Position numbers and translations under genes: made by a program. Below the pieces are notes generated by a model. That model did not search any database and had not been told where the DNA came from. It was given only the letters and a program-made list of their open reading frames with translations. A stretch of 62,756 nucleotides of DNA, counting the filler, from Hausera hauseri (taxonomy: Eukaryota): NCBI GenBank assembly GCA_046269625.1. It is 13 parts of 13 records of this genome, joined end to end, with 100 filler letters (N's around TTAATTAATTAA, not from the genome) between each part and the next. Parts side by side here need not be neighbours in the genome. Positions count along the whole stretch, not along the records: positions 48,698 to 53,691 come from JBJURY010367482.1; 12 more parts are not named here. One strand, written 5' to 3'. Below, piece by piece: positions 19,201-62,756 of this stretch (positions are counted from its first letter, which is position 1; every line of letters begins with the position of its first letter).

Positions 19201-19345
19201 TTAGATTCATGACTATTTATATCTTTTCTCAGAGTCAAAACTGCTACTTTTAATTTTACCGTTTCTGGTGATTCTAACTCTGTTTTTTAAAGTCATTGTA
19301 CGAAGAGGGAGCTCTCGTAACTCTTTGTATGGATACGGCTTCGTA

Positions 19346-22300: not shown

Positions 22301-22400
22301 CGAATTCAATAGTACTGTTGTCTGGAAATTTTGTTCTAGCATGAATAACCATCTTAGAATTCGGGGTATTTTCTAAGTGTGACCTATCCAAAAATCCGTT
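19346..22400 (-). mobile_element. Ty3/Gypsy LTR retrotransposon pol (RT-RNase H-integrase), frameshifted
   Basis: RT: PSQSLWPSPIVM, RLCVNY..LN, FTTLDLQSGF, RMPFGL, YIDD. RNase H: LRYPDFSLPFILKTD, ERKYSTTELE, VYTDHKAL, SRLQRW. Integrase: HDSHLAGH, VDYYSRY, LTDRA, YHSQCNGMVERMNRT, GPY. Confidence 0.95.
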
Positions 22401-38600: not shown

Positions 38601-39866
38601 NNNNNNNNNNNNNNNNNNNNNNNNNNNNNNNNNNNNNNNNNNNNNNNNNNNNNNNNNNNNNNNNNNNNNNNNCCTTTGTTACATCGTTCGTTCTTTCGTT
38701 CGTTCCTTCTTTCTTTCGTTCGTTCTTTTGTTCGTTCCTTCTTTCTTTCCTTCGTTCGTTCCTTCGTTCGTTCCTTCCTTCGTGCCTTCCTTCGTGCCTT
38801 CCTTCGTTCCTTCGGTCCTTCGTTCCTTCGTTCCTACTTTCCTTCCTTCCTTCGCTCCTTCGTTCTTTCCTTCCGTCTTTCGTCCGATCCTTCGTTTTTT
38901 TCTTTTGTTCTATCGTTCGTTCCTTCGTCCCTTCGTTCGTTCGTTCTCTCGTTCGTTCGTTCGTTCGTTCGTTCGTTCGTTCGTTCGTTCGTTCGGTCGT
39001 TCGTTCTTTTTTTCGTTCCTTCGTCCGTTCGTTCGTTCCTTTCTTCCTTCCTTCCTTCTTTCATTTGTTTGTCCGTTCGTTCCTTCGTTCTTCCTTTCTT
39101 TCGTTCGTTTGTCGATCGTTCGTTCGTTCCTTCTTTTTTTCGTTCTTCCGTTCTTTCATTACTTCTTTCCTTCCTTTCTTCCTTCGTTCTTTCGTTCGTT
39201 CGTTCGATCGTTCGTTCGTTCCTTCTTTCCTTTGTTCTTCCGCTCTTTAATTACTTTTTTCCTTCCTTTCTTCCTTCCTTCGTTCTTTCGTTCCTTCGTT
39301 CGTTCGTTCATTCGTTCGTTCGTTCGTTTGTTCGTTAATTCGTTCATTCGTTGATTCGTTTTTCCGTTCCTTCCATTCTTCTTTCATTCGTTCCTTCGTT
39401 CGTTTGTTCGCTCGTTCGTTCGTTTGTTCGTTCGTTCTTTCTTTCGTTCCTTCGTTCGTTCGTTCCTTCCTTCCTTCCTTCCTTTCTTCCTTCCTTCCTT
39501 CGTTCTTTCTTTCCTTTTTTCGTTCGTTCCTTCGTTCCATGGTTCCTTCCTTCCTTTCTTCCTTCTTTCGTTCGTTCGTTTGATCTTTTGTTCGTTCGTT
39601 CCTTCGTTCGATCATTTGTTCTTTCGTTCGTTCCTTCATTCCTTCTTTCCTTCGTTCGTTCGTTTGTTCCTTCCTTCCTTCCTTCGTTCTCTCTTTCCTT
39701 CCTTCGTTCCTGCGTTCGTTCGTTCGTTCTTTCGTTCGTTCGTTCGTTCGTTCGTTCGTTTGTTCGTTCGTTTGTTCGTTCGTTCGTTTGTTCCTTCGTT
39801 CGTTCGTTCGTTCGTTCGTTCGTTCGTTCGTTCGTTCGTTCGTTCGTTCGTTCGTTCGTTCGTTCG
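35700..39866. repeat. About 4.2-kb compound TTCG/TTCC/TTCT tetranucleotide microsatellite
   Basis: Seen directly; becomes pure (TTCG)n at the right end. Confidence 0.98.
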
Positions 39867-44028: not shown

Positions 44029-45125
44029 ACCTGAATCCATGCAGACATTAAGGACACCATTTACACCGTATACGCTTTCTGATGAACTAGTCATGTTCCA
44101 TGTTTAACAGTTGGTCCAAAATTGTCATGGATATGTAATGGAAATTTTCCCCAACCTTTTTCTCTAACAGCAACAAATTTATTGGTCGTCCATTCCGGTT
44201 CGGACTTCTATAGATTACGTCCACATATGGGTTCTTGTAAATCTCTTTGTGTGCTGGTATTTCTACGATTGTGTTTTACCGGAACACCTTAATTGACAAT
44301 GTTCGGTTACGCTGCACAAAAGTCGGAATGGTTTTCAATTTCATCGGCATCTAACATTCATCAAAGTCCAGTTCGGAAAAATACTGCCGATACTGATTTG
44401 GACGACATGCATTATGTCTATCCACTTGGTCATATTTTAACACGGCCAGAATACTTTAAATGAAACAGTATTCGTCGTCAGTATTTTTTGCATTTACTAC
44501 CGTATAAGAGTGCTTTAGAGCTGCACGTGTCGGTATGAATGATCGTCCGGACAGTTAAATTACATCACTCGACTTTGTTATGATAAAGCCAAGAGTGACA
44601 ATTTTTATACTTCGCCATACACTACCCTTTTTGTTGTAGTTGGCGATTCTTTCATCGAGCTATTCACTTACACCGGCAATAAAATCGTCGGAATATGGTT
44701 TGGCTCGATGTGATAAGTACCATTGTTTCCTGTCACCCTGAAGATTTTCAAATTCTGCAAGTGTATACATCGTACTTTGCAGTGGTGTTGGTAAAATTTT
44801 CTCACTTCTAATTTCAACGGCCTGCGCACACTAGACGAAACATGCTTTAGCTGTAGTGATGTTGTCCCCGATATGTTTACTTTCACGTCCACATATGATT
44901 TGTTTAGATCGCACTTGACAGTTATGGAAGGTTCCTTCTGCTGCTGCGGCTGCTGTTCGGTACTATTGTGGATGCACTCGTCAAGACTTTTTATACTTGA
45001 TGTTTGCTGCCTGTTAAGAAGATACTGGTTTTTCTTGTCGACATTACTATTTTCTTCTTGGACTGCTGAAACTGGTTCAAGTGGTTTTTGTGTGTGTTGT
45101 AGAATTGTTTATATTTGATTTCATT
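44029..45125 (-). mobile_element. N-terminal part of Maverick pPolB, inverted relative to the rest of the gene
   Basis: Minus strand reads SFIPT...VVNAKNTDDEYCFI.SILAVL and C..CLHGF. Confidence 0.75.
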
Positions 45126-45134
45126 AACTAGAGA

Positions 45135-46870
45135 AAAACATGTTCCAATCGCCGTCGGTATGTTGGTTGTCCTAATAAAATCCGCACGTCAACTGCAATA
45201 CTATGTTTTTTCATGGTTGAAACTGCGTACACGAATTCCTGCATCAGTTGGAAACAATAGTAGAAACGGAAATCTTACCGTGGTACAATAGAAATAGCAA
45301 TAAACCTTTGTTGTGAACAGATGAATATGAACGCCTGACGTTTGCAGCCACCAATGAATGTTACCTGTGCCACAAAATATTACCTTTCCATGCACTGAAA
45401 CGGCTCGTACCGGATCATGGTCATTTTACCGGTCGACATCTCGGAGCAGCATGTAATTCATGCAATTTGGCAAGGCGTGTGCGGCCATTCCTGCCGGTGA
45501 TTTTTCATAATTTCCGGAGTTATGATTGTCATCATATTTTAAAATGGGACATAAACGGATTTCCTCAATGGAAACTATCCAGAATTCCGATTAAGATGGC
45601 GAAATACCTGTCACTGTCTGCTCGTATAATCGGTTCCAGGTACGTTTTCTCAATTCTTTGCAATTTCTCAATGAGTCTCTGGCAAAGCAGGTGAATGTCT
45701 TGCCAGATGTGTCGCTAGCATTGACTCAGTTCTCCACACATATTACACGTAGCATAGGCATATTCCCGTATAACTTTGCAATATTGTACGAGCGGCTCCA
45801 GACAACAGACGAATTACCACCGCAATGAACCGGTATCACAGAAGAAGAATATTATAAAGCACAGTCGTTTTGGCAGAGCTCGGCTGTAGAAACCTATTAA
45901 AGTATATGCTTCAATATCTTAAACTGAATGTGTACCTGTTAGCCGATGTGTATCAAGTGTTTTGAGCAAAAGCCTTGACAGAAGATAGGCTGAAGCTAGT
46001 CAAATTTTACTCAATAGCCGTAATAAGTCTGGCATCAGCTCTAATATCACTGGATTGAGACATTGAGCTGCTGCAAGGCCCAGAAATGTACCGGCTGTTT
46101 GATTTTGTTATTCGCGGTAGCATGACATCTGTTAACATGCATCAGGTCAGTGCTACCGCCTATACCACATCACTGCTGTATATTGAAATTAATAACCCGT
46201 ACGGCTGGGCGCTTTCGCAACCCTTGCCGTACGGTTCATTCGAATGGGTAGTTGATAGACAAGATCTGGACGACGTAATGGTCAACCTACCAAGAGCATA
46301 CATGGCCGGCTCAGTCGAATACCTGATGGAGGTCGATCTCGTGGACAATTTACCGGTCGCACCATTTAACCAATGTCCGCCGGGCTTGAAGATGAAGAAA
46401 CTGCTTATGACGCATGAACCGAAGCTGAATTACGTAGTCCATTGGCGTCTGTTGCAATTTTACATGCAGTTGGGTGTACGCATCACACGGTTACATCGCG
46501 CAATTCGATTTGCTCAAGCTCCCATATTCAAGGCGCACATAGATGGAAATATGGAAAATCGAGCCGCAGCTTGTACAGAGTTCGAAAAGGACTAACACAA
46601 ACTGAAAAACAATTCCCTATAAGAAAAAACAATAGAAAATTTGATAAAGCGGCTCAATGTACGCCTATGCAATACCGAAAAGCCGTTGGTCACGTACACG
46701 AGCAAGACATAGTTCAGGCGGTCAATACACATTGCAGATGGATTGGTTACCATGCTTTTAAACAGAGAAGGAGTCATACTGGACCGGCCAAGTTATATAG
46801 GACAAGTGGTACTGGATCTGAGCAAGTTGCGAATGTATAAGCTGAGGTGTCGCGATTTGAAATATGATGC
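45135..46870 (+). mobile_element. Maverick pPolB pseudogene, central and C-terminal part (family B)
   Basis: CYLCH, HFTGRHLGAACNSCNL, FHNFRSYDCHHI, GIFPY, IEINNPYGWALSQPLP, NYVVHWRLLQ, KLKNNSL, RPSYIGQVVLDLSKLRMY. Confidence 0.9.
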
Positions 46871-47081
46871 ATGTAAAATCCGATGGACAGTTGAGGACAT
46901 ACTGCCTCGGCTTCCATTGATTAAAAGGTTGTGCGTTAATGTCACACTCGGTAACATGTCCGCGATTGTTGATATTAGCTAACATTATGGAAACAGTGTT
47001 TATACTATAACTATTTATATGCGTGTAACACGATTATAAACAAATAATGTGGTTAAAAAACGTTTTATTAATATTATTTAT

Positions 47082-47735
47082 ATGAAGCTGCAGAATAATG
47101 CCATTTTCCAGATTGTAGGCCCCAGTGGAAGTGGTAAAACACACTTTGTGTAAACTATTGCAGAATTACCGTGACATGTTCCATTCAACGCCGTACAATC
47201 ACATTTACTGGCATCAGAGTGTTGATGATGATGGTAAGTCCGGTTTGGCACATCGGGAATTTTTTAAATTAAAATCGATAAGAGTAATTATCGGTTTGAT
47301 TAGAACTTGTCTGAGAAATTACGCAACTGTGAGGATATTGTCATAGACGATTTATTTGAGGAAACTGCGAAACAATCAGATTTCAACAACCTGTTCACGA
47401 AAATTGCATGACACCGTGATGTGACAGTTATTTTCATTACACAAAACATGGTCCATCAGTGCGGACAGCATCGAACAAGAAATTTAAACTTACACTATTT
47501 TGTGTTGTTCAAAAATCCCCGTGATCAGCCTATTATTGATTATGTTGCACGACAAGTATTTCCTCACAACCGAGCCTACTTGATAAATGCATGTCATGAT
47601 GCTAGGATCGAGCCACACGGATACTTGTTCATCAACTTTACACAACAGTGTCCCGATGACATGCGTGTAACAAGATACATTTTCAGTGAGAAAAATGTAT
47701 GTGTCCATAAACAAATTCGAAAATCGACGATATGA
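47082..47735 (+). pseudogene. Maverick packaging ATPase (FtsK/A32-like), frameshifted
   Basis: VGPSGSGKT Walker A, VIDDL Walker B, LFKNPRD, PHGYLFINF. Paralogous to 61177-61788. Confidence 0.9.
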
Positions 47736-47745
47736 TTGTGATAAA

Positions 47746-47916
47746 ATGAAAAATTTTCGAAAAACATTTGTTAAACATAAATTTACCAAGCGGATGTCGG
47801 GCAAGAAATGTGTATCAAAACGAACCGCTACAATCAAGCGATTAATCAATTCTGTGTTTCGAACCACAACAGCAGCAAATAGACGCAATTTACCGTCACA
47901 GTGGTCGCGATTATAA
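47746..47916 (+). CDS. Small basic Maverick protein
   Basis: MKNFRKTFVKHKFTKRMSGKKCVSKR. Same position and similar sequence in the second copy (about 60938-61116). Confidence 0.5.
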   Translation: MKNFRKTFVKHKFTKRMSGKKCVSKRTATIKRLINSVFRTTTAANRRNLPSQWSRL

Positions 47917-47956
47917 AGAACTACGTCACATCAAAATCAATACTTTTACAAAAAAC

Positions 47957-48280
47957 ATGCGATTCACACGTAGTCAACCGTACTTTATTGCTTTGCTCAA
48001 GGCACCTACGAGACATAAGCGAAACATGCGGCGATCATTCTCGCAATTTGTAGTAGACGATTTAATGGAAATTTTATACAATATCGTTGTGGGTCACGTT
48101 GAAATTAGTAGTGGAAAGCGGACTTTACTAAAGTATCGAAAACGACTCATTGGCCTTGCCAACGCTTGTAGTAAACGACTGAAACGAAGGGTCATGTACC
48201 AGCAAGACGGAGGATTCCTTGGTGCAATTCTACCGATTGTCACGTCATTGCTGGATGGACTCGTTGGTGGAACAGTTTAG
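47957..48280 (+). CDS. Maverick/adintovirus small basic protein with C-terminal QxGGFL amphipathic motif
   Basis: EILYNIVVGHV...KYRKRL..LA...QQDGGFLGAILPIV. Intact and closely similar to 60551-60877. Confidence 0.8.
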   Translation: MRFTRSQPYFIALLKAPTRHKRNMRRSFSQFVVDDLMEILYNIVVGHVEISSGKRTLLKYRKRLIGLANACSKRLKRRVMYQQDGGFLGAILPIVTSLLDGLVGGTV

Positions 48281-48420
48281 TATAAACAACGACGGTAAGT
48301 ATATAGTGATTTGCGATATGAGTGTATGGTTTTCATCTTTCTGTCTCACTTTACCGAACCTTCCATTTAAGTTTCGTTCAAATTGTTGTAATTCAAGCAA
48401 ATCTGAAGCCATCGACAACG

Positions 48421-48597
48421 ATGGGAGACGTGTGGTTCGATCCGCGTCATCCCGTCTGGTACACTGGCGTTGAAAAACTGGCAAAGTCTGTCAAACAGAC
48501 TCGCAAGAGACCCAACGTTAGCTCGGGAAACAGTTAGCATACAGCCTAAACAAACCGATAAGAAGGCGGTTTCCAACTCGTGCATACCGTGCTGCCG
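48421..48597 (+). pseudogene. Maverick retroviral-like integrase, 5' part
   Basis: WFDPRHPVWYTGVEKL...QLAYSLNKPIRRRFPTR. Cut by the contig end. Confidence 0.8.
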
Positions 48598-48697
48598 NNN
48601 NNNNNNNNNNNNNNNNNNNNNNNNNNNNNNNNNNNNNNNNNTTAATTAATTAANNNNNNNNNNNNNNNNNNNNNNNNNNNNNNNNNNNNNNNNNNNN

Positions 48698-49790
48698 ATC
48701 CAATTGTGTGTGGTATGTTCATCGTGATTTGTTAGTGTGTTTTAGTCCATCTTCCGTCGTTGAGGTTAAAGGCTGAATAGAAGTCTTTGTAACATAGTGC
48801 AAAGCCAATTTCAGTAAATAGTAATAGTTTTCGGGTGATAGGGTCCACAAATCCGGTTTTGGTTATGTTTTCATCGTTGTAATAAACCATTAATTCGTTT
48901 GTGCAATTTTCTCCTGGAGATGTTACTAACGTTACCTCTATTGGTGGGCATTAGTACACATGGAGTATTTCGCCTTGTACTCTACCAAATATTCCAGGGC
49001 GATATCCCATAATTATGACAATATATTCTGGAAATTTGCTAGCTAGCATTAAGTCATGTTGGTTCAATTTTTGAGTGATTTTGCAATCTCTCAGTACCAT
49101 CATATTATATAATTCGACCAAATCCATTTTTTGAGGTGTGATAGATATAATCTATCTTGTTATTTGTATATAGATACCACTTTACATCTTCGGTTGGTAA
49201 CTTTCCTGTATTTGCAAGAGATTCTTGGCGGTTAAGTTTAATTTTGTACTCTAATCGTAGGTTGATTAATCGTTGGGGTAAAGTACCTTCTCTCATTCAT
49301 TGATTACTTGGTAAATTAAAATTCTGGTCTACATTAAACGTACCGAAGATATCTGTTTCCTTTAATTGTATTTGCACAAATAACCATGATAATTCAATTC
49401 ATACAATAATTTTTCCACAGAGCAATTTTCTGAGATTCTCAGCGCGTTTCTCCTTTTCTAGGTGTATATTTTCTAACTCAACTATCAAGTCGCCTTCGGT
49501 ATTCTCTATTCTTATTCGGTCGATTTCTGATTCCTGCTTGTCTTCTCTAGTTTTCGCTATTGTTACGAAAGTCAATAATAAGTTCTTAATTTCCTTTCGT
49601 TCTGGCCATAACATACGGGAGCGTATTATTTTGATTGCCTGGTACTTTTCGTTCCGTTTGATCCAGGTAATTTCTTTTTATAAAGGGTCTTTCTAGATTA
49701 GACATGTTGCATGATGGTTTGGATATGATGTATTGGTGTTCCATTATTGGTTTAGCCACTAATAATCATGTAAAGTCTGATTTGGTTTGC
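48698..49790 (-). pseudogene. Chuvirus-G / herpes gB-like (class III) envelope glycoprotein fragment
   Basis: YTNNKIDYIYH...DCKITQKLNQHDLMLASKFPEY...MGYRPGIFGRVQGEILHVY*CPPIEV...NCTNELMVYYN...FVDPITRKL matches the chuviral G pattern 'YVNSK...C...L.LA...P...PGY....GEV.H...C.PVEV...C..ELPV.YN...F..P.TRIL'. Confidence 0.75.
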
Positions 49791-49800
49791 TCGTTAAAAG

Positions 49801-52295
49801 TTACTGAGCGACGAAGTGAGGCACTTCTTTCATCGCCGTTACTTTTTCTACCATCTGAAGAGTTTCCTCTTTCTTTTGTGAAACTACTCTACGGGTGAAT
49901 TGCTGAATCCACTTTTCTTTCGTTTTCTTCTGATCTGGGGGAAGGGGTTCTATTTCGATCTCTTTGAGGATATGGACTAGGATTCCTATTATATCTGTCC
50001 GGTTCTTGTCGAGGTGGGGTATAGTCACGTCTCCTGTAATGATTTCTAAACTTTGGGTCGTTATACTTGTTTCTATTATCGTTTCCTGAATTATGTATAT
50101 CTCAGCTATCGCTTCGTCGGTTATCTCTTTCTCTGCTATCATTCCTATTGAAGTTACCATATTGTTTTTGGCTATCATCTCTTCTAAACCTCTCGCGGCT
50201 TTCGCTTCGCCTGTCATTGGGATAGTTGGTTCTTAGTCCTTCTGTTCGATTAGTTGAATATCGTGTTCGATTATCATCTCGTCTGTAATATGAATTCACT
50301 TTATTATTTCTACTGTCATAGCGATTGGGATGTCGATCATCACTGTATCTTTCTCTGCCAGGGAATCGATTTCTATTGTTATTTCTATCTCTCAAGTAGT
50401 CTCGTGATTTATCGTATCTTGTATCATTCCGCTGTCAATCATTATAGTATCTTTTATTTCTTTGATATTAGGTATCTTTTTGATTACTGTTGTAGTTTCT
50501 GGATGACTGGATATAATTCCCTCTTTCTGGAGTATTGCCTCTCTCTGGTATATTACTGTATCTTCGTTTAGGGTTTTGGCTTGTCGAAGGATCTTTCCAA
50601 AGTGAATTGCTACGATTTGCTACATCTGGTCTTACTAGCAATGGTGTCATAGCTACTTCTGCGATTTGTGTTTGATTAGTCCAGAGAGGTGTTTCATCTA
50701 TCCGAATTGCCATCGGTCGGGTATATTCTATCAGCTCGTTAGAATTATTTGCTGTGTGGAATTACAGTTCTTCTCGTAAGGGCGGTAAAAGTCCAAATAC
50801 AAATTGCTTTATGACCATAGCCCCAAAGGCTTGTGCGTTCGGACCAAAATATCTATTCATTGCCGTTTCAAATGTATTGATGTACGTTAAAACTTCTTCA
50901 CTTGGTTTCTGCTTACAGTTTTGAAATTTTAGATATCGGTTTTCTTGTATATTAACCTGTTGATTTTGTAAAATTTTTTCTTGATGTTGTGCCCAGTTTT
51001 CGTCAACACGTCTAGGTAAGCGTGTTATCGTCATTCTCAGTTCAGTATTCACATGCACTGGTAAAAGGGATATTTTCCTTGCGTCATACCAATGGATGGA
51101 CGTCGCCAACGAATCATATTCGTCTAGAAAATCCTCTAAGTCCGATACTCGTCCTTCATATGATTGAAGGTGAATGAGCATTTGGTATTTATCTTCTCTC
51201 CTTCACTTATTAAGGTTTGGTGGATTCTATCCGGCGTTATTATTTATATCCCTCGGTAGACTGCCGTTGCGCTCATCATGCTGATCCAACAGATCTCTAT
51301 TATTCCTTAGTGGCTCTATGTTGTTCTATAGGTGCCAGAGGTTTCACAAGGTGTGGAACATAGTTCCGCTGAAAATTTTTGTGATTGCACATCTTTTAAT
51401 CGAACACTCAGTCGGGCTATTAATTCTTCAGCACCTACTTGTTCAAGGCGTTTGTTCAGTTGGTTAATGTTTCTAGCCAGAGCATCAATTTTATTTCTGG
51501 TAAGGCTATATTCTGCTTGTATCTGCTCTTGTTCGCACACTATAACTGCTACATGGTTTTGTATTCCATTTATTCTTTGATTCGTTTGTCTTTCGTTATT
51601 ATCAATCTGTTCTCTATTTCTATGTATTACTGCTATGTTGTAAATAATTTTCTGTTGGAAATTATGTATTTATCTAGTTTAAGCATCTATATTTGGTATT
51701 ATTTGATCAGTTCTTTCCTCGTATGCATTTAGACGTATGCCGTTATTATTTACTTTTTGTTCTATTAGTGTAGTTTTTTAATCGATTCTATCTAGTCTCG
51801 TACCATTATTTTTCGTGCTTATTTCTACCATGTCATCTCCTCTTTGTCGGGGTATATCTTGTATATCTCTAATTAGTTGTCGGATGTTAACTTCCGTCTG
51901 ATTTTTTTCACTCTCAGATCATCCACGTCTACCTGATGTACTTCTTAACATGTTCGACATTCCAATTCTTGATCAGTAATTCTCTGTGCTAACTGGCGTG
52001 AGTTAGGTGCATTGTGGTATTGACCTCGAGTTGTCTTTTTAGTCCATTGACTCCTCGTACCCAATGATATTGTAATGGAACGGGAGATAATTGTATCGGG
52101 TCAATGTCGTGTAGTGATTCTGGGGTTCATGTTGCACTTAGAGCATCTGAGCTATTAGTGAGTCTAGTGTTTTCTTCATTTGAATCAACTTCTTTAATTG
52201 CAGTCAGTTGATTTTGCATTAATCGTCCTCGGGATCGGGTATTGTATTGATGTCCTTGCGCCATTGTGATCAAAGGAGATTAAGTTGCTATCCAT
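49801..52295 (-). pseudogene. LTR retrotransposon gag-like gene (coiled coil, capsid, Arg/Asp/Ser-rich tail)
   Basis: YEGRVSDLEDFLDEYDSLA...W.DARKI.LLP, QKPSEEVLTYINTFE (major-homology-like), KQFVFGLLPPLREEL. Frameshifted. Start position inferred. Confidence 0.8.
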
Positions 52296-52299
52296 TTTT

Positions 52300-52790
52300 A
52301 TTACATGCATATGATACAAGTTTCCTCTATGAGTAACCCACAAAGTACACTGCACCAATGTGGGATGTTTAGCTACATATATTTTACAATGAATAATATG
52401 TCCACATGGTAGATGGATCGTATCTGACCGATTTTTCTTACAGATTAAACAGGTCCAAATTATGCGGCTAATAACTGTGCATCTTTCTTCCACCTCTCCT
52501 TCTTTCTCTTTTATTGCTGAGATCAAATGTTGGATTCTTTGGTAATATTCATCGTCCATCAATTGCATTTGATATATATTGGTAATCACGGAAGGTAACG
52601 CTTAATATTCGGCTTTTTCATTGGTTTTGATGGTAATCATAGTCAGATATTTTGAGTATCCTAGTTCCGTTATCCTACTGAGTAGAGGATTATTGTATAG
52701 TTTATACCATCCATAAACTATTTTAGGAGATTGATTTCTTATGGTTAATAACTGATTTGTCCAATTGTTGAGGTTGTTCAGGGTCATACT
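52300..52790 (-). pseudogene. RING-finger (IAP-type C3HC4) protein
   Basis: CLICKKNRSDTIHLPCGHIIHCKI....TLVQCTL. Confidence 0.7.
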
Positions 52791-52951
52791 GTTGGTACTC
52801 GCTAATTCTATAAACAAATTTGTTCAATATATTACATTAGATAGTTATTTAAGAGATTCATATACATATACAAATGGGCATTTATTTATTCAAATCAGAC
52901 ACGCACTAATTTATCAGTTATTGTTTGTTTAAAGTAGAGATATCCTTGCTG

Positions 52952-53691
52952 TTAATTTCTGAGAATTGGAAACGTTATTCTTCTTTCTATACAACTTCTG
53001 CAAAATGTACAATTCGTTGTTCGACTTAAGCATTTCTCGCGTGTTTTCAAATGACCACAAGGTAAAAGGATAAATTGTGATAGGTTTGCGTAGCAGATTA
53101 CACATTCAAAATCACGTAGGTAGAGTTCATTAAGAATATTTTCTTCTAATTCTCCTTCTTCTTCCGGGGAAATGCAATTGAGGTTCTGAAGTATTTCGAA
53201 TGTACTGGAAGACCAGCTTTGTTTGGTCTCTCTTTGGTATTTGATATATTGTAGTATATTTGATATATTGTAGGATATCGGGCTATTATTGATACGGCTA
53301 CAGGACTTTTTTGGTACATTTTACAAAGGTTTCCCATACCAGATTGCATTCGACATCGTCTCTTAGTGTGCCTTTCAGAAGTTTTATATATTGAATAATT
53401 GAACTTGGTGGTGTACAGTATGTTTGGACATCGCCGGTCGATATTTTCTAGTAAGAAAGTTTCTTTTAAGCATATGGTACATTTCACATATTGCTCTTTC
53501 TCTTTCAGAATTAGTATTAATCCTTGCTGGGCCAAATGTTCAATATCTTTGTTTTCTTTAAAGGTTAGCTTCCTTTTGTTTACTGTATATAAGATTAGAC
53601 GTAAGTTCTCTTCCATTATACTGTCCGTCGAATAAACCATTCATACTGGCATTGTCGTGTAATATTCAGTGTGCTTGTCTATATTGAGCTG
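52952..53691 (-). pseudogene. IAP-like gene (degenerate BIR-like region plus C-terminal RING)
   Basis: LAQQGL...YVKCTIC is BIR-like. C-terminal frame reads FECVICYANLSQFILLPCGHLKT.EKCLSRTTNCTFCRSCIERRI, stop at 52952, with minus-strand AATAAA near 52885. Confidence 0.7.
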
Positions 53692-53791
53692 NNNNNNNNN
53701 NNNNNNNNNNNNNNNNNNNNNNNNNNNNNNNNNNNTTAATTAATTAANNNNNNNNNNNNNNNNNNNNNNNNNNNNNNNNNNNNNNNNNNNN

Positions 53792-54999
53792 CACAGAATG
53801 AAAATTATCATGATGAGAAGCATTATTTTTGTTGCACGATTTTCTCGTTTCTCGGCGCGTACAATACTATTGGCTCTTTTACGTCTTCGATACAAGGAAT
53901 GATATCCTTTCTGGGATTTCATCCTTCTCGAAGAATTAAAGTCTTTATTATGATAACAACTGAGCCTCTTTCGAAAAGTTGTTTTTTCTTGTTTCTCGGA
54001 AATGTCCAATCTCCAAACCGGAGTTTGTGGAAGAAGAAAATCCACCGACCGCAATCCACTGCTATGAATCGATTTTCGTTTGGAAACGGAAAACACGAGA
54101 GCCTTCAATTCACTTGCCTGGCTATTGGACGTTGCGTCTGGGTCAGAACTGTTATCATCAGGTGTTAGCAGTTTTGGAGTAGTGAGCTCATTATTGTTTT
54201 CTTTTGGGACGTTCTTTAGTTTTATAGATCTCCTGTAGTCTGATGAATAGTCGTCGTTTGTGCTCATGGAGTCTGATCTACAGAGCAGTCGGTTTTTTTG
54301 ACTGATCATAATGAATATTTTGATGTAGAGCGCAGACATTACGATTAGCGGTAGAATGAAAGAACCAAGAGCGGAATATATTACATAATATGGTTCAGTG
54401 AATAATTGACACTGATATAGTTGAGATGAATTGTCATAGAAAAGATTACTGAAGAATTTTGTGATAGGATTCGTAAATTTTTCCCCAGTCCATCCAATAA
54501 TTTGCGGTAGGCATATGGCCAATGATAACACCCATACGAATAATATGTATGGTTTTGCTCGATCAGCTTTTGAGTTTGATCGGTACCAAATTGGGAAATT
54601 GGTGGCTGTATATCGATCAACTGCTATCATGACCAAACTCCAAACAGATGCGGTGCAATACAGAACATCGGTGTTTAACCAGATATTGCACAGAATTACC
54701 CCTAAAGGCCAATGACTGCATATGTCATTTACTATGGAGAAAGGTAAGACTGTTAGTGCTAGAAGCATATCACTTAGGGCTAAGTTGCCGATGAGGAGGT
54801 TGGCTGTGTTTCGTAGTAACCGGTTCTGCGATAGGGTTACGATAACCGTTAGATTACCTATAACAGTCCATGAAGTTAGCAGTGACAGAAATGTGCCCAG
54901 TAATACTGTTGTGAATGTTTCAAAAGTATGCGATATGGTGTGGCTAAGTGGAAAAAATAAAATGACTGAAGGCAAACTGGCAATTCCTTCAAAGATCAA
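53792..54999 (-). CDS. Class A aminergic GPCR (octopamine/tyramine/adrenergic-like), TM1 to start of TM6, truncated by contig end
   Basis: GNLTVI, NLALSDMLLAL.VLPFS, WPLG..LC..W..TDVLYCTAS (amine-binding Asp), IAVDRY, VWVLS..ICLP, YSALGSFILP, long ICL3, ENRATK. No in-frame ATG upstream, so the 5' end is probably spliced. Confidence 0.93.
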
Positions 55000-56318
55000 C
55001 CAGATTTCATAAAATTCAAAAGCACTCTAGTGTTTTAAGTTGTTCTACATTACGTCCAGCAATTGCCTTTTGACATAAGCACACTGTGTTTCATCTGCTC
55101 AAGGGGCTTGAAAGATTGTCATACGAACACCCTGCATTGTTTGTGCAATAAAAAGTCTTTCAGTGGTTTAAATGATTGCTAGTCAAACTGATTCAATAAA
55201 AAGCTGAAACATGATACAGTATATGGGAATTGGCTGCAGTCAACAGCTGATGAGTGTTTAGTCTTCTATCTGTCTGCTCTGTCAAACCCAAACCCTCCGT
55301 GTGACTTTCAGGCAGTTTTACTTAGTGTAAAAAAGTTGTTACCATAGAAATATTAAAAGGACAGCATATAAATTTGAATTTGTTGGTTTGAGCTTTTGGA
55401 ATGAGTTTGGATTGAAATTTATTTTATTAACAGACACTAACAAAGTAAACTGCTCTCATATTGTAGTAACATTTGTCAAAATAGAATTACTTATTGGTCC
55501 GTTTGTGGAAAATTGCCACAATGATTTCTGCAGAAATATGCTCAGGATTGGATTTGTGCTCGTTAGACTAACAAGTCGGTATGAAGTGTTTATAGAAATT
55601 TGTCTATATACAGAAACCAAATTTGTCATTAATTTTATCGACTGAAACATGCTGTTTATTGAAGAAATATTCCAATTGCACAGAAAACATGTCAACTTTA
55701 TCCACAATCCAAACTGTTTCAATAAACTTCCTCATATTACATGTACAATGTTTGCAATGGAAACCAGAAATAACGAATTTCAAGACTTTCATATGAAACC
55801 GTATTTGGCACTTGTTCAAATTCCCCACACGCTCTGTTCCTTTGCTCGAGATAATTTTTTAATATTCGATTTACAATATTTCCCCGATGTTCTGTCAATT
55901 TTAAATGCGTTGGTTTAATTTACAATGGCATATTTGTGTACACAAGTGTATTTTTATTTCGATTTTCTGGGCAATTATTGTATTTCGCACACATCTCCAA
56001 CAATTCTGTTTACTGGTGTGTTCATAAAGGTACCAAAATATTGAACGTATCGTAAAATAAAAACCGTGCTGGATTGTCTGGATGATAGTGATAAAAAGAC
56101 ATAAAGAAAAGTGAACAATGTTCAATTCGATACAAAAAATTGAATTACCCCTCCATACACACACACACACACACACACCAGTCGCAAAGGGACACAAACA
56201 AAAAAGCCATCGCACACATAAAATAAAACTCAACACGCCCCCCCTCCAGTAGCCACAAAGGCTACCCCTGAAAAACAAAAGACAAATCAGTTTATTGACT
56301 TTCCTCAGAGCAACGAAT

Positions 56319-58067
56319 TCAACTAACGGTCGCAACGACAGTCGTCGTCAATTTCTGGCCGTCACCATCGACCGTCCATCGGCAGTCGGTACTGACGGGC
56401 AATTTCATCTGAATTTGTCAACAAAATCCTAAAACATCAAATCAACAAACGTAATCATCCATTTCCAATCCGACATCATCCGATTTAGCCACAAACAAAT
56501 TCACGTCAGCACATCGTCGTGTCACCAACTGCAATTGATCGGCCGATGACGCCGACAGAAACAACCGCATCCCATCGACATTACGCACGATGACGTCATG
56601 GATTTCACCGAGTATTTGGCAATCAATTTGCGTACAGTCCATCAGTGTCAATGCGCCGATCATGTCGTCGATGATGATGTTGACACTGGTGCAGTTATCT
56701 TATTGACAATTTAATGAGTCAGCAATGAGTCATAGGCTACTCACCAATTGTCACTGATGACGCACCATTACTCACATGGACTGCCACATCATGGCAATTA
56801 CGAATAACTGCCCCAATAGATTCACTGCAGTCTACATCGATAACAACGGCATTGGCGGTCTCATTTTCCTGTCAATGATTATCACGTCGACATCAATTGA
56901 CAAATGACTTACAATGATCCATGAATTATTCACAATTCGCCGACCTGTCGATTGGACATCATTCAACGTCACCAGCAATTCCTTCATTGCACTTTGTTTC
57001 TTCTCCTCAACATCAGCCGGCAATTTCCGGCAACTCTCCACCAATTCGTAACTGGACTGTTCCATCCGCACAGGCCGCAAACGTGCCCGCTGATCCCCAC
57101 TTCGCAACGAATCCATCAGACTGCACATATCCGCATGCGTGATTTGTTCCGGCGCCGTTGTCCGCACAACTATCGCCTTACCAGCCTCTCCTTTGTTACA
57201 ATCATTGCTGTAATTCAATGTCACGAATGCCCGCAACACCGACCTCGGTACGGGCCCATCAATTCGCCAGACAAGAGCAATACCGCTACACAAATGCCGG
57301 GTGAGAATGGCGGATAACTCAGCCAGTACGGCAACGAATGCACGAATCCACGAACGATACCGCCCGAAATGCGGTGAATTGTCGACGATTTTACGCGATG
57401 CTATGGCGGCACCGTCGGCCACACCCTGGACAAGTTGAGTCGGATTGTCCAACACAAACGGCCAAGCGCAAATCAGTGCGGCATCGGCAGTCAGTCGGTA
57501 AATTTCACAATTCGGTCGGGATCTATCGCAATTTCTGTTGATATCGGCGATGTGACACGTGTACTCGTCGACGTCCGACGGCAGATTGGTGAAATCATAA
57601 CGGAAAATCATGTCTAATATTGATAACTGCAATTTGTACAAATTGATGAACGAATCCGACTTGAAAATGATATCCTCCGTCACCAATTCTGATTCCTTTT
57701 TCATCAATTTTACTTTACCCATGAATAAATTCGTCAAATCTGCAATTATCCCTTCTAACGAATACATTTTTGTCGGATTCCGTAAAATATTATTTCCATT
57801 TTCCATTCGCAACAATGCCACCTCCATTCTCTCCAACAATTCCTCCTGTTTTATCTTTTCCTCTAATTCTTTCTGTCCTTCGACGTCATCTGTCACCAAT
57901 GGTTTCATTTCACTCAATTCCCCTGTTTTCTCCAATTCCAACATCAAATTCCCATTTTCCAACAATTTCTTCTGATTTATAATTATCACATCATTAACAA
58001 TTTTATCTTTTCCATTTTCCAATTTTTTCTTTTTCTGTCTGACGAAACATGAAAATAATGATCTCAT
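56319..58067 (-). CDS. Divergent adenylyl cyclase-associated protein (CAP/Srv2); 4 exons, introns 56869-56912, 56699-56744, 56409-56450
   Basis: RLE-like LLERMEVALLRME; helical domain ..AW..V..NP...V....DGA...WIRAF..VLAEL...H..SG.L.W; WH2-like SLMDSLRSGD..ARLRPV. Three GT-AG introns (44, 46, 42 bp) give a continuous CARP domain: WIIENET...SVTIDNC...QILG...VDG...DYMKLPV...GQKLTT, stop. Confidence 0.8.
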
Positions 58068-58463
58068 CTTATTTTGTTCAGAATAAAAGAGGAAATTAAA
58101 ATTCGGAAAAAATACAATCTCAAAAGGAAAGGAAAGGAAAGTAAAGTTTAGCAAAATTTACGAAAATTTGTAATAGGATTTGACATGAAGACAGGCTATT
58201 GAATGCCATTTTGTGCACAATTGAAGTTTGCTGTTCTTTAACACTCTCTTGTCATTTTGAATATAACTGAGGTTTGCTGTTGTATGATACTTGGACTACT
58301 TGTGTGGACTATTAGATAAATTATCATGTGAGAACAAACTATGGGCTAATCTGATGTTGTTGTNNNNNNNNNNNNNNNNNNNNNNNNNNNNNNNNNNNNN
58401 NNNNNNNTTAATTAATTAANNNNNNNNNNNNNNNNNNNNNNNNNNNNNNNNNNNNNNNNNNNN

Positions 58464-58651
58464 AAACCCAATTGGCACCAATGCTCCCTGATTGGTCCTC
58501 TACTCCTATTGGCTTACTTCCTTCCCCACCATGACGTGTCTTCTTCCCATTCGCCAGTTTTCCTTCCCCACCATGACGTGTTCTCGTCCTATTGGCTTCC
58601 TTCCTTCCCGGGGGGGGGGGGGTTGGTGCCAAGTCCTCCCTTCTAACTACT
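58464..58651. mobile_element. Probable Maverick terminal inverted repeat end (…CTAACTACT) abutting the minor capsid gene
   Basis: Duplicated ATTGG and CCATGACGTG units, a G12 run and an ACTACT terminus. The capsid frame is cut at 58652. Confidence 0.5.
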
Positions 58652-59636
58652 CCTGGCTGCAAACAGAAATTTAATGGGTTTCAAAAATTCGTCTACTATA
58701 TACACGGAAATACTGTGCACAACATTGTGAGACAACGATAAATACATGGGCCGAATTATATTTACGTAAGCAGCTTCGCCGGTGTTTCGTACGTGTCCAA
58801 ATCCAGTCCAATAGAAGCCAATAGTTATTTACGATCTCCGCCAACATATACGAGTTATGTTAGATGTGTTAAAATATTGATTCGATGACAGGCTTCGTAT
58901 AGATGCGGTTTGTGTTTAGCATCAATGGGCCGTTTGCCGGTTTGAACGAATTCTCGTTTCTTAAAACCCAGATTCCGTGACAATAATTCATCAAAGGCAA
59001 AATATGTAACATTATCATGTAGTGTAAACGAAATACGACCATCAGAGTTTAATTCAAGTACCTTGATAGCCAATTTAGCTACCGCCTTGATGGTTGCACA
59101 CAATTTTGTTTCCCTTTCCGTAAGAAAACAAGTTCCTTTTGTATGAGAGTAAAAGAAAAATTCAGTCTTTTGCCAGTACACTGTAATATCGGTGGCTTTC
59201 GTGGAAAATTTCAGTTTTTTACTAATTGTTCTATGTCCATCGAGCTGTGGACCTTTCGAGTGCACATTGACAGATTAAAAACCTCATGCCTGAGCGTCGG
59301 CTAGTGATTTAAATTGCAATTCAATCGGATGTTTGTGTTTAGCACCAATCGATTAAATGAAAAATATAAACCGGGGAAATATTGCCGTTTGTAATTCCGA
59401 TCGTGAAATGTTCCATTAGAGTCTTGGACTAATTGCAAACGACTAGATGCAGGAGATTGTTTTTGTAAAGTATAGCATATTCCACTGTTCTCACGTATTG
59501 TTATTGGTGAAAATATAAACGTGAATTCCGCCAAAGCCACTTTCCAGGCTCCCTGGTGTATGTCAAGCGGCTGGTCCAACGCCATGGTAAACCGTTCACC
59601 GGTATTGTCACCATTTTTATCTTCTAAAACGTACAT
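58652..59636 (-). pseudogene. Maverick minor capsid (penton-like) protein
   Basis: N-terminal NTGERFTMALDQPLDI.QGAWKVALAEF, central L...LGF, C-terminal SISVYIVDEFLKPIKF. Frameshifted. Confidence 0.75.
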
Positions 59637-59639
59637 AAC

Positions 59640-60504
59640 AGGTGTTTCTTTTGTGTTAATTGCTGAAATTCAGAAAACCTCATCGCTCCTGTTCTGATTG
59701 AAATTCTTAATGAATGGTGTCGTACTGAGCTTTGAAATACGTACATAATCACAGATTTTATACTTAGGACGACGCTTAATTGGTCGTTGTCGTTGTGGTC
59801 GATTTTGATAAAGCTACATGTCCAAATCATCGATTACATCCACCAGCCGTAATCCATTGATGACACGATGAGTCGAATGATTGTATGCATGAATAATATC
59901 CGACAGTACATCTACCCAGCGTTTGTTGCCTTGCTTCGTAAAGAATTTGTTTAGGTGACCGCGCAATGTTCGATTAAATCGTTTAACGAGTGCAACCTTG
60001 TATTGGGAAAACACCGAGTAGTGGTTTACGCCGAACCGCTGCAACGTGGGCGTTGTAGAATTCCTTACTGAAATCCGTTTGTAAATGCTTCGGTTGTTGT
60101 TGTTGTTGTTGCTGTATCAGCAGTTTCTGAACAGCGTCGTCAATCTCTTTACCGGATTTATATTTCAAGGCAACTGCATGTGCAAAACGACTAAACACAT
60201 TAACGAATGTCAGTACGTACCGATAACCATCGTTGATGCTGGCGTACGGAATCATTTCCATCAGACCCATTTGCCATACATTATTTACACCGGTAGCACA
60301 ATATTCAAAAGTTGGAAACCGCCTTTTTATCGGTTTGTTTAGGCTATATGCTAATTGTTTCCCGAGCCAACGTTGGATCTTTTGCCGAGTATGTTTGACA
60401 GTTTGCCGACGCCCATCGTTGCCGTCGGTGTTGTCGTCACCGGTTTTTCTGCTTGCATTACAACAATTTTTTTCGGTAAACTGGGACAGAAAGATAGAAA
60501 CCAT
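59640..60504 (-). pseudogene. Maverick retroviral-like integrase
   Basis: NVWQMGLMEM, GYRYVLTFVNVFSRFAHAVALK, PKHLQTDFSKEFYN, KVALVKRFNRTLR, RWVDVLSDIIHAYNHSTH. Confidence 0.9.
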
Positions 60505-60550
60505 GCACCTCTATCGCCGAATCATTATATACTTACCGTCATTGTTTATA

Positions 60551-60877
60551 CTATGATGTTGTTGCAGAACCAGTGAGTCCCAGTAATGACGTGACAATCG
60601 GTAGAATTGCACCAAGGAATCCGCCATCCTGTTGGTACATGACCCCCCCCCGTTTCAGTCCTTTACTACGGGCGTTGGCTAGGCCAATGAGTCGTTTTCG
60701 ATACTTTAGTAAATTCCGCTTTCCACTACCAATGTCAACGTGACCCACAACAATATTGTATAAAATTTCCATCAAATCGTCTACTACAAATTGCGGGAAT
60801 GATCGTGTGTTTCGCTTATGTCTCGTAGATGCCTTGAGCAAAGCAATAAAGTACGGCTGACTACGTTTGAATCGCAT
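60551..60877 (-). CDS. Maverick/adintovirus small basic QxGGFL-motif protein
   Basis: Intact 108-aa ORF, paralogous to 47957-48280. Confidence 0.8.
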   Translation of the reverse strand: MRFKRSQPYFIALLKASTRHKRNTRSFPQFVVDDLMEILYNIVVGHVDIGSGKRNLLKYRKRLIGLANARSKGLKRGGVMYQQDGGFLGAILPIVTSLLGLTGSATTS

Positions 60878-61176
60878 GTTTTTCGGATTTTGTGTGTGGA
60901 CGTTTTGATATTGCTGATAATGAGATGTAGTTGTTTATTACCGTTGCCACTTTGACGGTAATTTGCGTCTAGCTGCTGCTTTTGTTGTTTGAAGAACCGA
61001 ATTGATTAATAGCTTCACTGTAGCGGCACTTCTTTTGATACACGTTTTTTGCCACCGAACATTCGCTTGGTAGTTGGTTGTTTACGTTTAACAATTGTTT
61101 TTCGGAAATTCTTCATTTTTTTTCTTAATCATGATGTCGATTTTTGAATAAGTTTATAGACACAAACACCACTTTT

Positions 61177-61788
61177 CTAATTGAAAATGTCTGTTTGTAC
61201 ACGCATGTCGACGGGACACTGTTGTGTAAAATCAATAAACAGATATCCATGCGGTTTGCTTGTAGCATCATGATATGCATCTATCAAGTTGGCTCGGTTG
61301 TAAAGAAATTCTTGTCGTGCAACAAAATCAATGATAGTCTGATCACGGGGATTTTTGAACAACACCAAATAGTGTACGTTTAGATTTCTTGTTGGATGCT
61401 GGCCGCCCTGATTGAACATGTTTTGCGTAAAGAAAATAACCGTTACGCCACGGCCTCGTGAAATCTTGGTGAACAGGTTGTTGAAGTCCGATTGTTTCGA
61501 GGCTTCCTGAAATAATTCGTCAATGACAATAACGTCACCGTTGCGTAATCTCTCAGACAAGTTTCCATCAAACCCATTAATTACCGTTATGCATTTAAGT
61601 TTACAAAATTCCCGGTGTGTCAAACCGGACTCACCATCATCACCAACATCCTGATGCCAGTATATATGATTATACCGCGGTGAATGGAACATATCACGGT
61701 AGTTTTGAAATAGTTTACACACAAAGTGTGTTTTTCCACTTCCACTGGGGCCTACAACCTGGAAAATATTATCATTCTGCAGCTTCAT
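61177..61788 (-). CDS. Maverick packaging ATPase (open 203-aa ORF)
   Basis: VGPSGSGKT, VIVIDE, FTKISR, TQNMF, RNLNVHYLVLFKNPRD, PHGYLFIDF. Confidence 0.92.
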   Translation of the reverse strand: MKLQNDNIFQVVGPSGSGKTHFVCKLFQNYRDMFHSPRYNHIYWHQDVGDDGESGLTHREFCKLKCITVINGFDGNLSERLRNGDVIVIDELFQEASKQSDFNNLFTKISRGRGVTVIFFTQNMFNQGGQHPTRNLNVHYLVLFKNPRDQTIIDFVARQEFLYNRANLIDAYHDATSKPHGYLFIDFTQQCPVDMRVQTDIFN

Positions 61789-62089
61789 CTAATAAAAATA
61801 ATAATACAACCTTTTCTAACCACATGATTTGTTTATAATTGTGTTACACGTACATATAAATAGCCATAGTATAAACACTGCTTCCATAATGTTAGCTATT
61901 ATCAATTATCGCGGATATGTTACTGAGTGTGACATTAACACACTACATTTTAATCCATGGAAGCCCAGGCAGTATGTCCTCAAGTGTCCACCGGATTTGA
62001 CATGCATCATATTTCAATCGGGAAAGTGTCGTATTATGTAATGTCGCAAACCAATCACAGTTGACAGTAAACGAAAATCAAAACCGTCG

Positions 62090-62473
62090 ATGTCGCGCCA
62101 AACACAGAAATTTTTACCGAAACGAATTTTTCGCAAGCAGGAAATGCATTTTCTACAAACGCCCATACTGATTTCGTTAAATGATCCCGTGTGTCTATGT
62201 GCACCCAAGTACAGCTATCGTGTAAAACGGCTTTTGGGTAAAAATTTGGATAAACTTTCTGATGCTCTACATCAGTTAAACGTGGACTTAAAGTTGAACG
62301 AATCGACCGTTCAACAGCAATATGTCGATTTACCGGCGCAGAAAACGAAATTGTTCGATTTTATCGGTCGCAAAATGTCTCATGTACCAAATGATGATTT
62401 AAAATGTCGACTGAACATTGAATTTCAAGGATACAAGGAAAAGCCGGTATCAAAAGCCCGATTTGGCGTGTAG
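62090..62473 (+). CDS. Hypothetical Maverick-associated protein fragment
   Basis: 127-codon ORF between the ATPase module and the dUTPase. No family recognised. Confidence 0.35.
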   Translation: MSRQTQKFLPKRIFRKQEMHFLQTPILISLNDPVCLCAPKYSYRVKRLLGKNLDKLSDALHQLNVDLKLNESTVQQQYVDLPAQKTKLFDFIGRKMSHVPNDDLKCRLNIEFQGYKEKPVSKARFGV

Positions 62474-62587
62474 AAGAAACACATTTTAGATATCCATAAA
62501 TTTTGTTTTACCGTTCTTCTTTTACTTCTTCTTTCATCAACCCAATTAAAGAGTATAACGTATAATTTTAATATTAGCATAAGAATA

Positions 62588-62756
62588 ATGATAATGAATG
62601 ATGTAAAGATTATCTTAACAGATGCAAATGCCTTTGTACCGAGACATATTACAGCAAACAGTGCAGGCTACGATGTTTTCCAATGTCAATACCACAATTT
62701 CGGCCAGAACAATCAAATGCATAACGACTGGGCTTCGATTGGCGATTCCACCCGGT
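62588..62756 (+). pseudogene. dut: dUTPase, 5' part with one frameshift; runs off the window
   Basis: NAFVPRHITANSAGYDVF / NTTISARTIKCITTGLRLAIPPG (motif 1 AGYD plus TGL...IP.G). Confidence 0.85.

Follow-up and report, generated by a model that had tools for sequence, protein, structure and literature searches.

Which kind of genetic element is represented by a single Hausera hauseri contig in which two RING genes, a gag gene and a chuvirus-like env gene are packed onto one strand? The window, the whole 62,756-nt stretch of DNA that was analysed, holds 12 linkers, and the locus is exactly one contig between two of them. The original prediction described four co-oriented, intronless, A-rich genes, and this description holds: all lie on the minus strand and lack introns, and the composition of the strand is uniform across genes A and B, gag and env, with A making up 39-42% of the coding strand in every part. 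The features are as follows.

53692..53791, no strand: assembly linker gap N44-TTAATTAATTAA-N44, the upstream contig limit
52952..53640, minus: gene A, IAP-like, with a degenerate BIR-like segment and a C-terminal RING-HC
about 53574-53353, minus: BIR-like segment of gene A, by motif only
53110-52982, minus: RING-HC of gene A (zf-C3HC4_3, E 3.5e-9)
52788..52951, minus: AT-rich spacer of 164 nt between genes A and B
52290..52787, minus: gene B, second RING-HC gene (zf-C3HC4_3, E 1.3e-5)
49607..52264, minus: gag, colinear with P0002 aa 1-935 (Retrotrans_gag)
51906-51322, minus: coiled coil of gag
about 51190-50700, minus: gypsy-type capsid of gag, 66% to P0002
49225..49614, minus: first exonuclease-like domain, DEDD-type, sharing the frame of the gag polyprotein in relatives
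49225..49227, minus: in-frame internal deletion junction, where the tblastn pieces P0001 365-494 and 1650-1682 meet without a change of frame
48699..49227, minus: C-terminal part of env, chuvirus/gB-type (class III; PF24664, E 3e-15)
48598..48697, no strand: assembly linker gap N44-TTAATTAATTAA-N44, the downstream limit, where the remaining env and any pol would lie

We consider that this contig is probably a copy of a large, multi-copy, enveloped invertebrate element of the Ty3/gypsy type (Metaviridae) with a Burro-like GAG-ENV-POL design. The copy itself is dead, internally deleted and also cut by the assembly, and its value is therefore as a pointer to its family. All of its frames are decayed, with 17 stops and five frame changes across the aligned gag-to-env segments.

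A gag-to-env polyprotein and its deleted part

Two open-frame proteins colinear with the window, P0001 and P0002 (from contigs of 7,573 nt and 6,828 nt, respectively), served as relatives for comparison. P0002 is colinear from its first methionine to the exonuclease-like domain, while P0001, a single ORF from gag tail to env, continues colinear into env. Together these relatives carry, in one frame, gag, an Arg/Asp-rich tail, two exonuclease-like domains, Bcl-2-like and hydrophobic segments, and env, giving a combined reading frame of ~2,530 aa by offset arithmetic.

In the window, gag begins with MAQGHQ, is interrupted by stops and frame changes, and matches P0002 aa 1-935 at 41-50% per segment outside the better conserved capsid. 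The Pfam family Retrotrans_gag is matched with E 0.0022 in the window and 0.00076 in P0002, each below the cut-off, and is further backed by weaker matches to other gag proteins; Retrotrans_gag or Ty3_capsid is found in four of the seven capsid relatives scanned. Capsid and profile searches against the PDB returned nothing significant. The gag tail is long and rich in Arg, Asp and Asn, with no CCHC knuckle (C-x2-C-x4-H-x4-C) in P0001 or P0002 and no zf-CCHC Pfam match in the window, P0001 or P0002. A further protein, P0003, the second match in the gag-relative search, was dropped as a repeat artefact with SUN domains.

The original prediction had gag running straight into env. Instead, the two are separated by a piece resembling an exonuclease (49614-49225) and by a deletion that keeps the frame, with the window copy missing P0001 aa 495-1649, or 1,155 residues. 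The first exonuclease-like domain, 64% to P0002 936-1065 and 52% to P0001 365-494, has no Pfam match of its own in the window or P0002 and is probably inactive. It is weakly similar to the second (pairwise E 0.002), at P0001 645-815, which Atlas assigns to the DEDDh/RNase T clan with a score of 0.90; the ten best named matches all fall in one family or clan, a result that one-third of shuffled proteins also reach. The deleted part comprises this second domain, possible ubiquitin-like, Bcl-2-like and hydrophobic pre-env segments, and the N-terminal half of env. The Bcl-2-like segment, at P0001 1284-1326 directly before env, matches TIGR00865 with E 0.0069, and 59 of the 60 PDB matches listed (of 73) belong to the Bcl-2 family, each of them weak (E 0.38-1.8). 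A single-sequence fold of P0001 1024-1327 (pLDDT 39) had no Foldseek match at E 0.001, and the best Atlas score for P0001 1180-1345, 0.76, is uninformative. At about 1030-1105, P0001 was read as ubiquitin-like by eye, with no Pfam match, and none of the calls of BIR, Bcl-2 or exonuclease reaches a curated threshold. No MATH, ankyrin or midasin-like domain was revealed when P0001 and P0002 were scanned with Pfam.

The env part that remains in the window is 58-64% to P0001 1650-1820. In P0001, env matches PF24664 with E 1.9e-63 and has a transmembrane-like segment at 1904-1933. The gap cuts the downstream end of the window env before this transmembrane segment, so that the contig stops inside env, 143 residues before the end of P0001.

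The missing pol and LTRs

As predicted, the interval from gag to env contains no protease, reverse transcriptase or integrase, whether in the window, P0001 or P0002. The further proposal that the element lacks pol is unsupported: the contig ends inside env at an assembly gap. Because both ends of the locus are assembly gaps and env is cut, this contig does not show that pol is absent, and the missing copying genes are most likely an effect of the assembly stopping inside env. Burro/GYPSM1 and the GAG-ENV-POL elements with gB-type env place pol after env, so by analogy pol would be expected there, past the contig gap. Any 5' LTR lies beyond the upstream gap at 53692..53791, and no LTR-size repeat was found inside the contig or in common between it and the rest of the window. 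Scans of viral contigs and metagenome contigs for flanking loci confirmed no relative, and no pol or LTR of the family was seen. A gypsy pol piece at 19250-22500 is on a different contig with no link shown; it has no detectable similarity to the locus, P0001 or P0002, a result that speaks neither for nor against a link.

A genuinely pol-less, non-autonomous family, encoding capsid, env and survival genes and borrowing protease, reverse transcriptase and integrase from another gypsy element, is the alternative that survives best, although we think it unlikely. It would account for the lack of pol in all three sequences and for P0001 ending soon after the env transmembrane region, and no protein with both env and pol was found among candidates of 1,079-3,436 aa (P0001 was the only protein with this env among the 2,789 in this size range). 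However, the window is cut inside env, the source contigs of P0001 and P0002 are too short for the ORF plus a downstream pol, and published gB-env elements in the same order carry pol after env.

Two RING genes upstream of gag

Two RING genes lie directly upstream of gag in the window copy. Gene A, with one frame change near 53260, was predicted to be IAP-like. Its C-terminal RING is real: the zf-C3HC4_3 match is better than the curated cut-off, and the six best PDB matches are all XIAP/cIAP RINGs (E 2e-4 to 9e-4). This RING had no match in a phage collection. The BIR half of the prediction has motif-level backing from the sequence. A loose BIR spacing pattern, picked post hoc, matches once in gene A and in none of 2000 simulated sequences. 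Neither Pfam nor PDB sequence searches detected a BIR in gene A, and a single-sequence fold of its N terminus (pLDDT 37) had no Foldseek match at E 0.001. Gene A resembles cellular and baculoviral IAPs in its C-terminal RING and N-terminal BIR-like spacing, but its BIR is undetected by any profile search, and the putative zinc site has a long spacer, with 33 residues from Cys to His rather than the usual 16 or so. Overall, Pfam recovered both RINGs, Retrotrans_gag (below the cut-off) and PF24664 from the predicted ORFs, but not the BIR.

Gene B has one in-frame stop and a degenerate last Cys pair, and its RING match falls short of the curated cut-off. Its helix and RING are related to those of gene A (36% across 53 aa, pairwise E 2e-8). 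The prediction that this second RING gene abuts the start of gag is confirmed, the end of its RING and the gag ATG lying no more than about 30 nt apart. Neither an LTR nor a target-site duplication, the boundary that would have separated the RING genes from the rest of the cassette, could fit into so short a gap. AATAAA motifs close to where genes A and B end were not used, being at chance level for an A-rich strand.

In one sequencing run, possibly made from the source sample (no RNA run is listed), 8,857 contigs map to the stretch, 7,352 of them less than 95% alike. Genes A and B have variant letters in 21-51 contigs at the listed positions, and this coverage by many diverged contigs makes the RING genes repeat-like. 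The family, RING genes included, is present as many diverged copies, of which the contig total gives no count. Single contigs from this run join 52267 to 52703 and 52901 to 53026; the first of these, which is divergent, connects the 5' part of gene B to the start of gag. For copies other than this one, the evidence that the RING genes are linked to gag comes from single short contigs of one run. The original proposal of an enveloped retroelement with anti-apoptotic or E3-ligase genes is supported by the Bcl-2-like segment in P0001, the repeat-like RING genes and the lack of space for an LTR.

It is improbable, somewhat more so than a pol-less family, that the RING genes are not cargo and instead belong to a neighbouring repeat, are host retrogenes into which the element inserted, or were brought in by a chimeric contig. 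The proteins P0001 and P0002 contain no RING, the assembly is fragmentary, and summed contig depth is lower over gene A (63-1,334) than over capsid (up to 13,781) or env (up to 17,901), although depth at the 80% cut-off also follows conservation and does not measure copy number. Against this explanation stand the narrow gap between gene B and gag, the match of the RING genes to gag and env in strand and composition, and the many diverged contigs over both RING genes, including the one that reaches the start of gag.

Burro exceeds 30 kb in total with an internal region of up to 25 kb, so that long LTRs do occur (PMC6431247). Genes A and B could sit inside a very long LTR, ending at the start of gag with a primer-binding site that overlaps the gag ATG. 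The context of this ATG is ...CA-A-TGGCGCA, the last 7 letters of which pair with the 3' end of tRNA-Ser, and the 52267/52703 contig joint coincides with the gag start. We give this arrangement very little weight and rejected the primer-binding site as unsupported: only 7/12 letters match the tRNA-Ser end given in the eLife supplement, compared with 0-2 mismatches among the rows consulted there, and the same letters can encode Met-Ala-Gln. Moreover, no pile-up of contig ends is reported, and gene A is shallower than gag, not deeper.

Relation to known enveloped retroelements

The original prediction did not recognise this arrangement, but Burro/GYPSM1 is already published as having env after gag and ahead of pol, together with BIR, RING and BCL2 cargo (PMC6431247, PMC13465017), and gypsy elements in GAG-ENV-POL order with gB-type env are known from Nematoda, Bryozoa and Platyhelminthes (PMC13524379; Sacco et al. 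2022 as cited there). The order of planarian Burro/GYPSM1 is Gag...BIR...BCL2-env-PR-RT-RH-IN, with a dUTPase between PR and RT and with upstream accessory ORFs (PMC6431247). The family described here is similar in having an env that shares the frame of gag and is related to the fusion glycoproteins of mononegaviruses, a BCL2-like segment immediately before env (in P0001, by weak matches), a coiled-coil (Smc-like) gag region, an accessory ORF upstream of gag, RING cargo with a putative, motif-level BIR, and a possible ubiquitin-like segment before BCL2, seen by eye. In contrast to Burro, which has 2-3 CCHC knuckles, gag here has a long Arg/Asp/Asn-rich tail and no CCHC; there are two DEDD-exonuclease-like domains, not listed for Burro, and no MATH, ankyrin or midasin matches; and the IAP-like gene and second RING gene are separate ORFs upstream of gag.

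With the GAG-ENV-POL Ty3/gypsy errantiviruses, the family shares a gypsy-type capsid, a gB-type env after gag with no pol between, and multiple copies, but it inserts ~1,000 aa of cargo after gag and before env, and carries two RING genes ahead of gag. The main text of PMC13524379 does not contain 'Bcl', 'apopto', 'exonuclease' or 'accessory'. The Juno/Vesta LTR retrotransposons of bdelloid rotifers are also gypsy elements with DEDD-family exonuclease cargo; however, theirs is a DEDDy exonuclease in a separate ORF3 after pol with catalytic residues intact (PMC5408684), whereas the two DEDDh-like copies here lie within the gag-env polyprotein and appear degenerate by eye. The least probable reading is that of a BEL/Pao element (Anakin- or Cer7-like), or of a chuvirus glycoprotein that became endogenised next to a gag to which it has no relation: the chuvirus-like env family has also been captured by mosquito BEL/Pao elements (PMC13524379), but gag and env of P0001 share one open frame and the capsid relatives carry Retrotrans_gag or Ty3_capsid. 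In BEL/Pao elements, env follows pol, while no pol precedes env here.

For the preferred Ty3/gypsy-type element, LTRs would flank the whole, with pol following env beyond the contig gap. The polyprotein could be cut by the element protease and host signal peptidase, after which env would enter the secretory pathway and coat Gag particles. The IAP-like protein and that of the second RING gene, as E3 ligases, and the Bcl-2-like piece may restrain death by caspases in cells that produce the element or are infected by it, and the exonuclease-like domains may bind or shield element RNA. The anti-death role is modelled on Burro1, whose BIR and RING are reported, second-hand, to be anti-apoptotic; Burro1 is said to be specific to planarians, with a captured IAP that reportedly protects stem cells (PMC13465017).

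A bolder and rather doubtful reading is that a non-planarian lineage of enveloped retroelements independently assembled a counter-defence kit in the style of large viruses, with an IAP, a second RING ligase, a mimic of Bcl-2 and a pair of DEDDh exonuclease domains, similar to that of arenavirus NP, that hide element RNA. If so, blocking host cell death would be a recurrent strategy of gB-env retroelements and not a planarian oddity. A second gag-BCL2-env family with IAP-like cargo would allow one to ask, for GAG-ENV-POL elements with gB-type env, whether anti-death cargo is ancestral or was gained repeatedly. The gag-accessory-BCL2-env-pol order was known already; the different gag, the exonuclease-like domains and the separate upstream IAP-like and RING genes set this family apart from Burro.

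Gene order and decay of the gag-env element

The stretch at 48698-53691 is exactly one contig piece, flanked on both sides by linker gaps (N44-TTAATTAATTAA-N44) in a window that strings together pieces of 4-6 kb with 12 such linkers. Because the element occupies a single piece between gaps, its neighbours across them are uninformative. Its genes share a coding strand with 39-42% A in every part:

53640-52952 (-): gene A, plausibly IAP-like, with a RING; most upstream of the element genes
164-nt spacer between gene A and gene B
52787 to ~52290 (-): gene B, a second RING-HC gene, downstream of the spacer
from 52264 (-): gag, ATG start MAQGHQ
49614-49225 (-): exonuclease-like piece, after gag and before env
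to 48698 (-): env, running into the gap and cut by the contig end

In Pfam searches the gag matches Retrotrans_gag (E 0.0022) and the env matches PF24664, a chuvirus-type fusion glycoprotein (E 3e-15). Two open-frame relatives from ENA contigs, P0001 and P0002, between them cover gag to env in a single frame. P0002 (1,339 aa) has a MAQGHQ start identical to that of the window gag and aligns colinearly with 52264-49225, with segment identities of 41-64%. P0001 (1,963 aa) aligns with the gag tail, through aa 365-494 with 49614-49225, and through aa 1650-1820 with the env. Offset arithmetic across the relatives gives a frame of ~2,530 aa from the gag start to the P0001 end. In the window copy the exonuclease-like piece and env abut in a single frame at 49225-49227, and therefore P0001 aa 495-1649 (1,155 residues) are absent, through either a real deletion or a collapsed assembly; the env stops 143 residues before the P0001 end. 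The aligned segments contain 17 stops and 5 frame changes, which makes the window element a dead copy.

RING genes and their linkage to gag

Genes A and B both encode RING-HC domains (Pfam zf-C3HC4_3, E 3.5e-9 and 1.3e-5, respectively), with gene B akin to gene A over the RING and preceding helix (36% over 53 aa). The original prediction called gene A IAP-like, which is plausible. The best 6 of 27 PDB matches (E up to 1) of its RING are XIAP and cIAP RINGs. No BIR was found in gene A by Pfam search, PDB search or folding; a permissive pattern of BIR spacing, picked after the gene A sequence had been seen, matches once in gene A, in 0 of 2,000 simulated sequences and nowhere in the rest of the window.

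Copies were surveyed in the contigs of one public sequencing run from one study, which holds 69% of the sampled words and is possibly the source sample itself. There, 8,857 contigs match 48698-53691 at a likeness of at least 80% (377 at 99% or more, 1,128 at 95-99%, 3,125 at 90-95% and 4,227 below 90%), covering 30 of 30 bins of the element. Among the 40 variant rows listed (1,675 more exist), contigs with variant letters number 38-51 in gene A, 21-33 in gene B and up to 96 in capsid and env. Since so many contigs vary in genes A and B, the RING genes belong to a diverged repeat family and are not single host genes.

The predicted grouping of these genes with gag would be broken by an intervening LTR, and none is present: ~30 nt separate the end of the gene B RING from the gag ATG, and the contig contains no LTR-size repeat. 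In one contig, position 52267, immediately before the gag ATG, is fused to 52703 within gene B; in another, 52901 is fused to 53026. Such joints come from further copies, each carrying a deletion of its own, and weakly support the same linkage elsewhere. No contig among those listed spans the whole stretch. As a tRNA-Ser primer binding site, 52264-52275 (-) was rejected, with only 7 of 12 letters matching. The 7-letter match to the tRNA-Ser 3' end overlaps the gag start and coincides with the joint at 52267 in another copy, probably by chance.

Cargo between gag and env, and the position of pol

In the region absent from the window copy, P0001 has a domain grouped by ESM Atlas with DEDDh/RNase T exonucleases and the arenavirus nucleoprotein at a score of 0.90; 10 of its 10 best named matches fall in one family or clan, as do those of one third of shuffled proteins. 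Its similarity to the exonuclease-like piece that the window copy retains is weak (pairwise E 0.002); judged by eye, neither of them has the first catalytic acidic pair. A Bcl-2-like segment follows this second exonuclease-like domain (TIGR00865, E 0.0069, aa 1284-1326), with Bcl-2 family members making up 59 of the 60 PDB matches listed, of 73 (E 0.38-1.8). A hydrophobic segment (aa 1336-1354) comes next, and env runs from aa 1345 (E 1.9e-63). P0001 also shows a ubiquitin-like beta-grasp pattern by eye (aa 1030-1105), positioned like the Burro Ubi2/SUMO-like motif, and a weak Death-domain match (aa 1200-1265, Pfam E 0.15) that overlaps the Bcl-2-like segment at its start.

The element had been described as lacking pol. 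Pol is indeed absent between gag and env in the window, P0001 and P0002, and Pfam finds no pol domain anywhere in the two relatives, which also lack a CCHC knuckle and a protease motif. This order, however, is already known: GAG-ENV-POL gypsy elements with HSV/gB-type env are reported from Nematoda, Bryozoa and Platyhelminthes (excerpts of Chary and Hayashi, PMC13524379). As the contig stops inside env, pol would be expected past the gap. Viral and metagenome contig collections yielded no locus of this family, and the proteins of 1,079-3,436 aa that were searched included no env-plus-pol protein. A decayed gypsy pol sits on another window piece (19250-22500, -): it has RT (E 2.4e-19), RNase H and integrase, a stretch resembling dUTPase precedes RT by eye, and the coding strand is rich in A (37%). 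This separate piece has no established link to the element.

Relation to known elements and other features of the window

On capsid, env and order, known here from the gag-to-env part, the element fits the GAG-ENV-POL gB-env gypsy class. Its likeness to the planarian giant elements Burro/GYPSM1 is one of working mode. In excerpts of Arkhipova and Yushenova (PMC6431247), their polyprotein comprises Gag, Smc-like, MATH, ubiquitin/SUMO-like, BIR, ankyrin and BCL2-like parts. Its env, akin to the fusion glycoproteins of mononegaviruses, is placed after BCL2 and ahead of the protease; PR-dUTPase-RT-RH-IN follows, and accessory ORFs lie upstream. The element is not filed as a Burro, because this family lacks the CCHC knuckles and, by Pfam, the MATH and ankyrin domains. 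A Hydra paper, seen in excerpt (PMC13465017), terms Burro1 planarian-specific and relates second-hand that its BIR+RING region shields stem cells from caspase-mediated apoptosis. Rotifer LTR elements are known to carry a DEDD exonuclease as cargo (PMC5408684, in part). We found no literature description of twin exonuclease-like domains, or of IAP and RING genes lying separately ahead of gag, in such an element, although subscription papers, Repbase entries or supplements may hold one.

By analogy with Burro and with Metaviridae in general, transcription from an LTR would yield an RNA for a polyprotein that the element's protease then cleaves. Ahead of env, the hydrophobic segment could act as an internal signal, making env a membrane fusogen on Gag particles, and the gag tail, with its basic and acidic residues, may bind RNA in place of zinc knuckles. 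Host cell death might be held down by the IAP-like protein, second RING protein and Bcl-2-like piece, and the exonuclease-like domains might bind or shield RNA. Splicing, internal promoters or leaky scanning could each account for expression of genes A and B from their position before gag.

Elsewhere in the window, two decayed, inverted Polinton/Maverick-like pieces (44029-48597, +, and 58464-62756, -; arms 81-93% complementary) lie on separate contig pieces, with PolB-like frames, an Endonuclease_7 match (E 1.1e-5) and a GPSGSGKT P-loop ATPase. An intronless rhodopsin-family GPCR (53792-55026, -; 7tm_1, E 9.9e-41), cut by a gap, adjoins the gene A piece across the linker. At 56400-58157 (-), a frame resembling adenylate cyclase-associated protein (CAP; CAP_C E 1.3e-11, CAP_N E 0.0095) lacks introns, contains stops and is possibly a retrocopy. 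The window also holds an intronless glutamine synthetase ORF of 363 codons (5217-6305, -), a tetranucleotide repeat array of ~4 kb whose strand skew is extreme (35600-39866; AT skew ~ -0.9), and frames whose recurring C-x2-C...C spacing resembles saposin B domains by eye (27286-28808, +).
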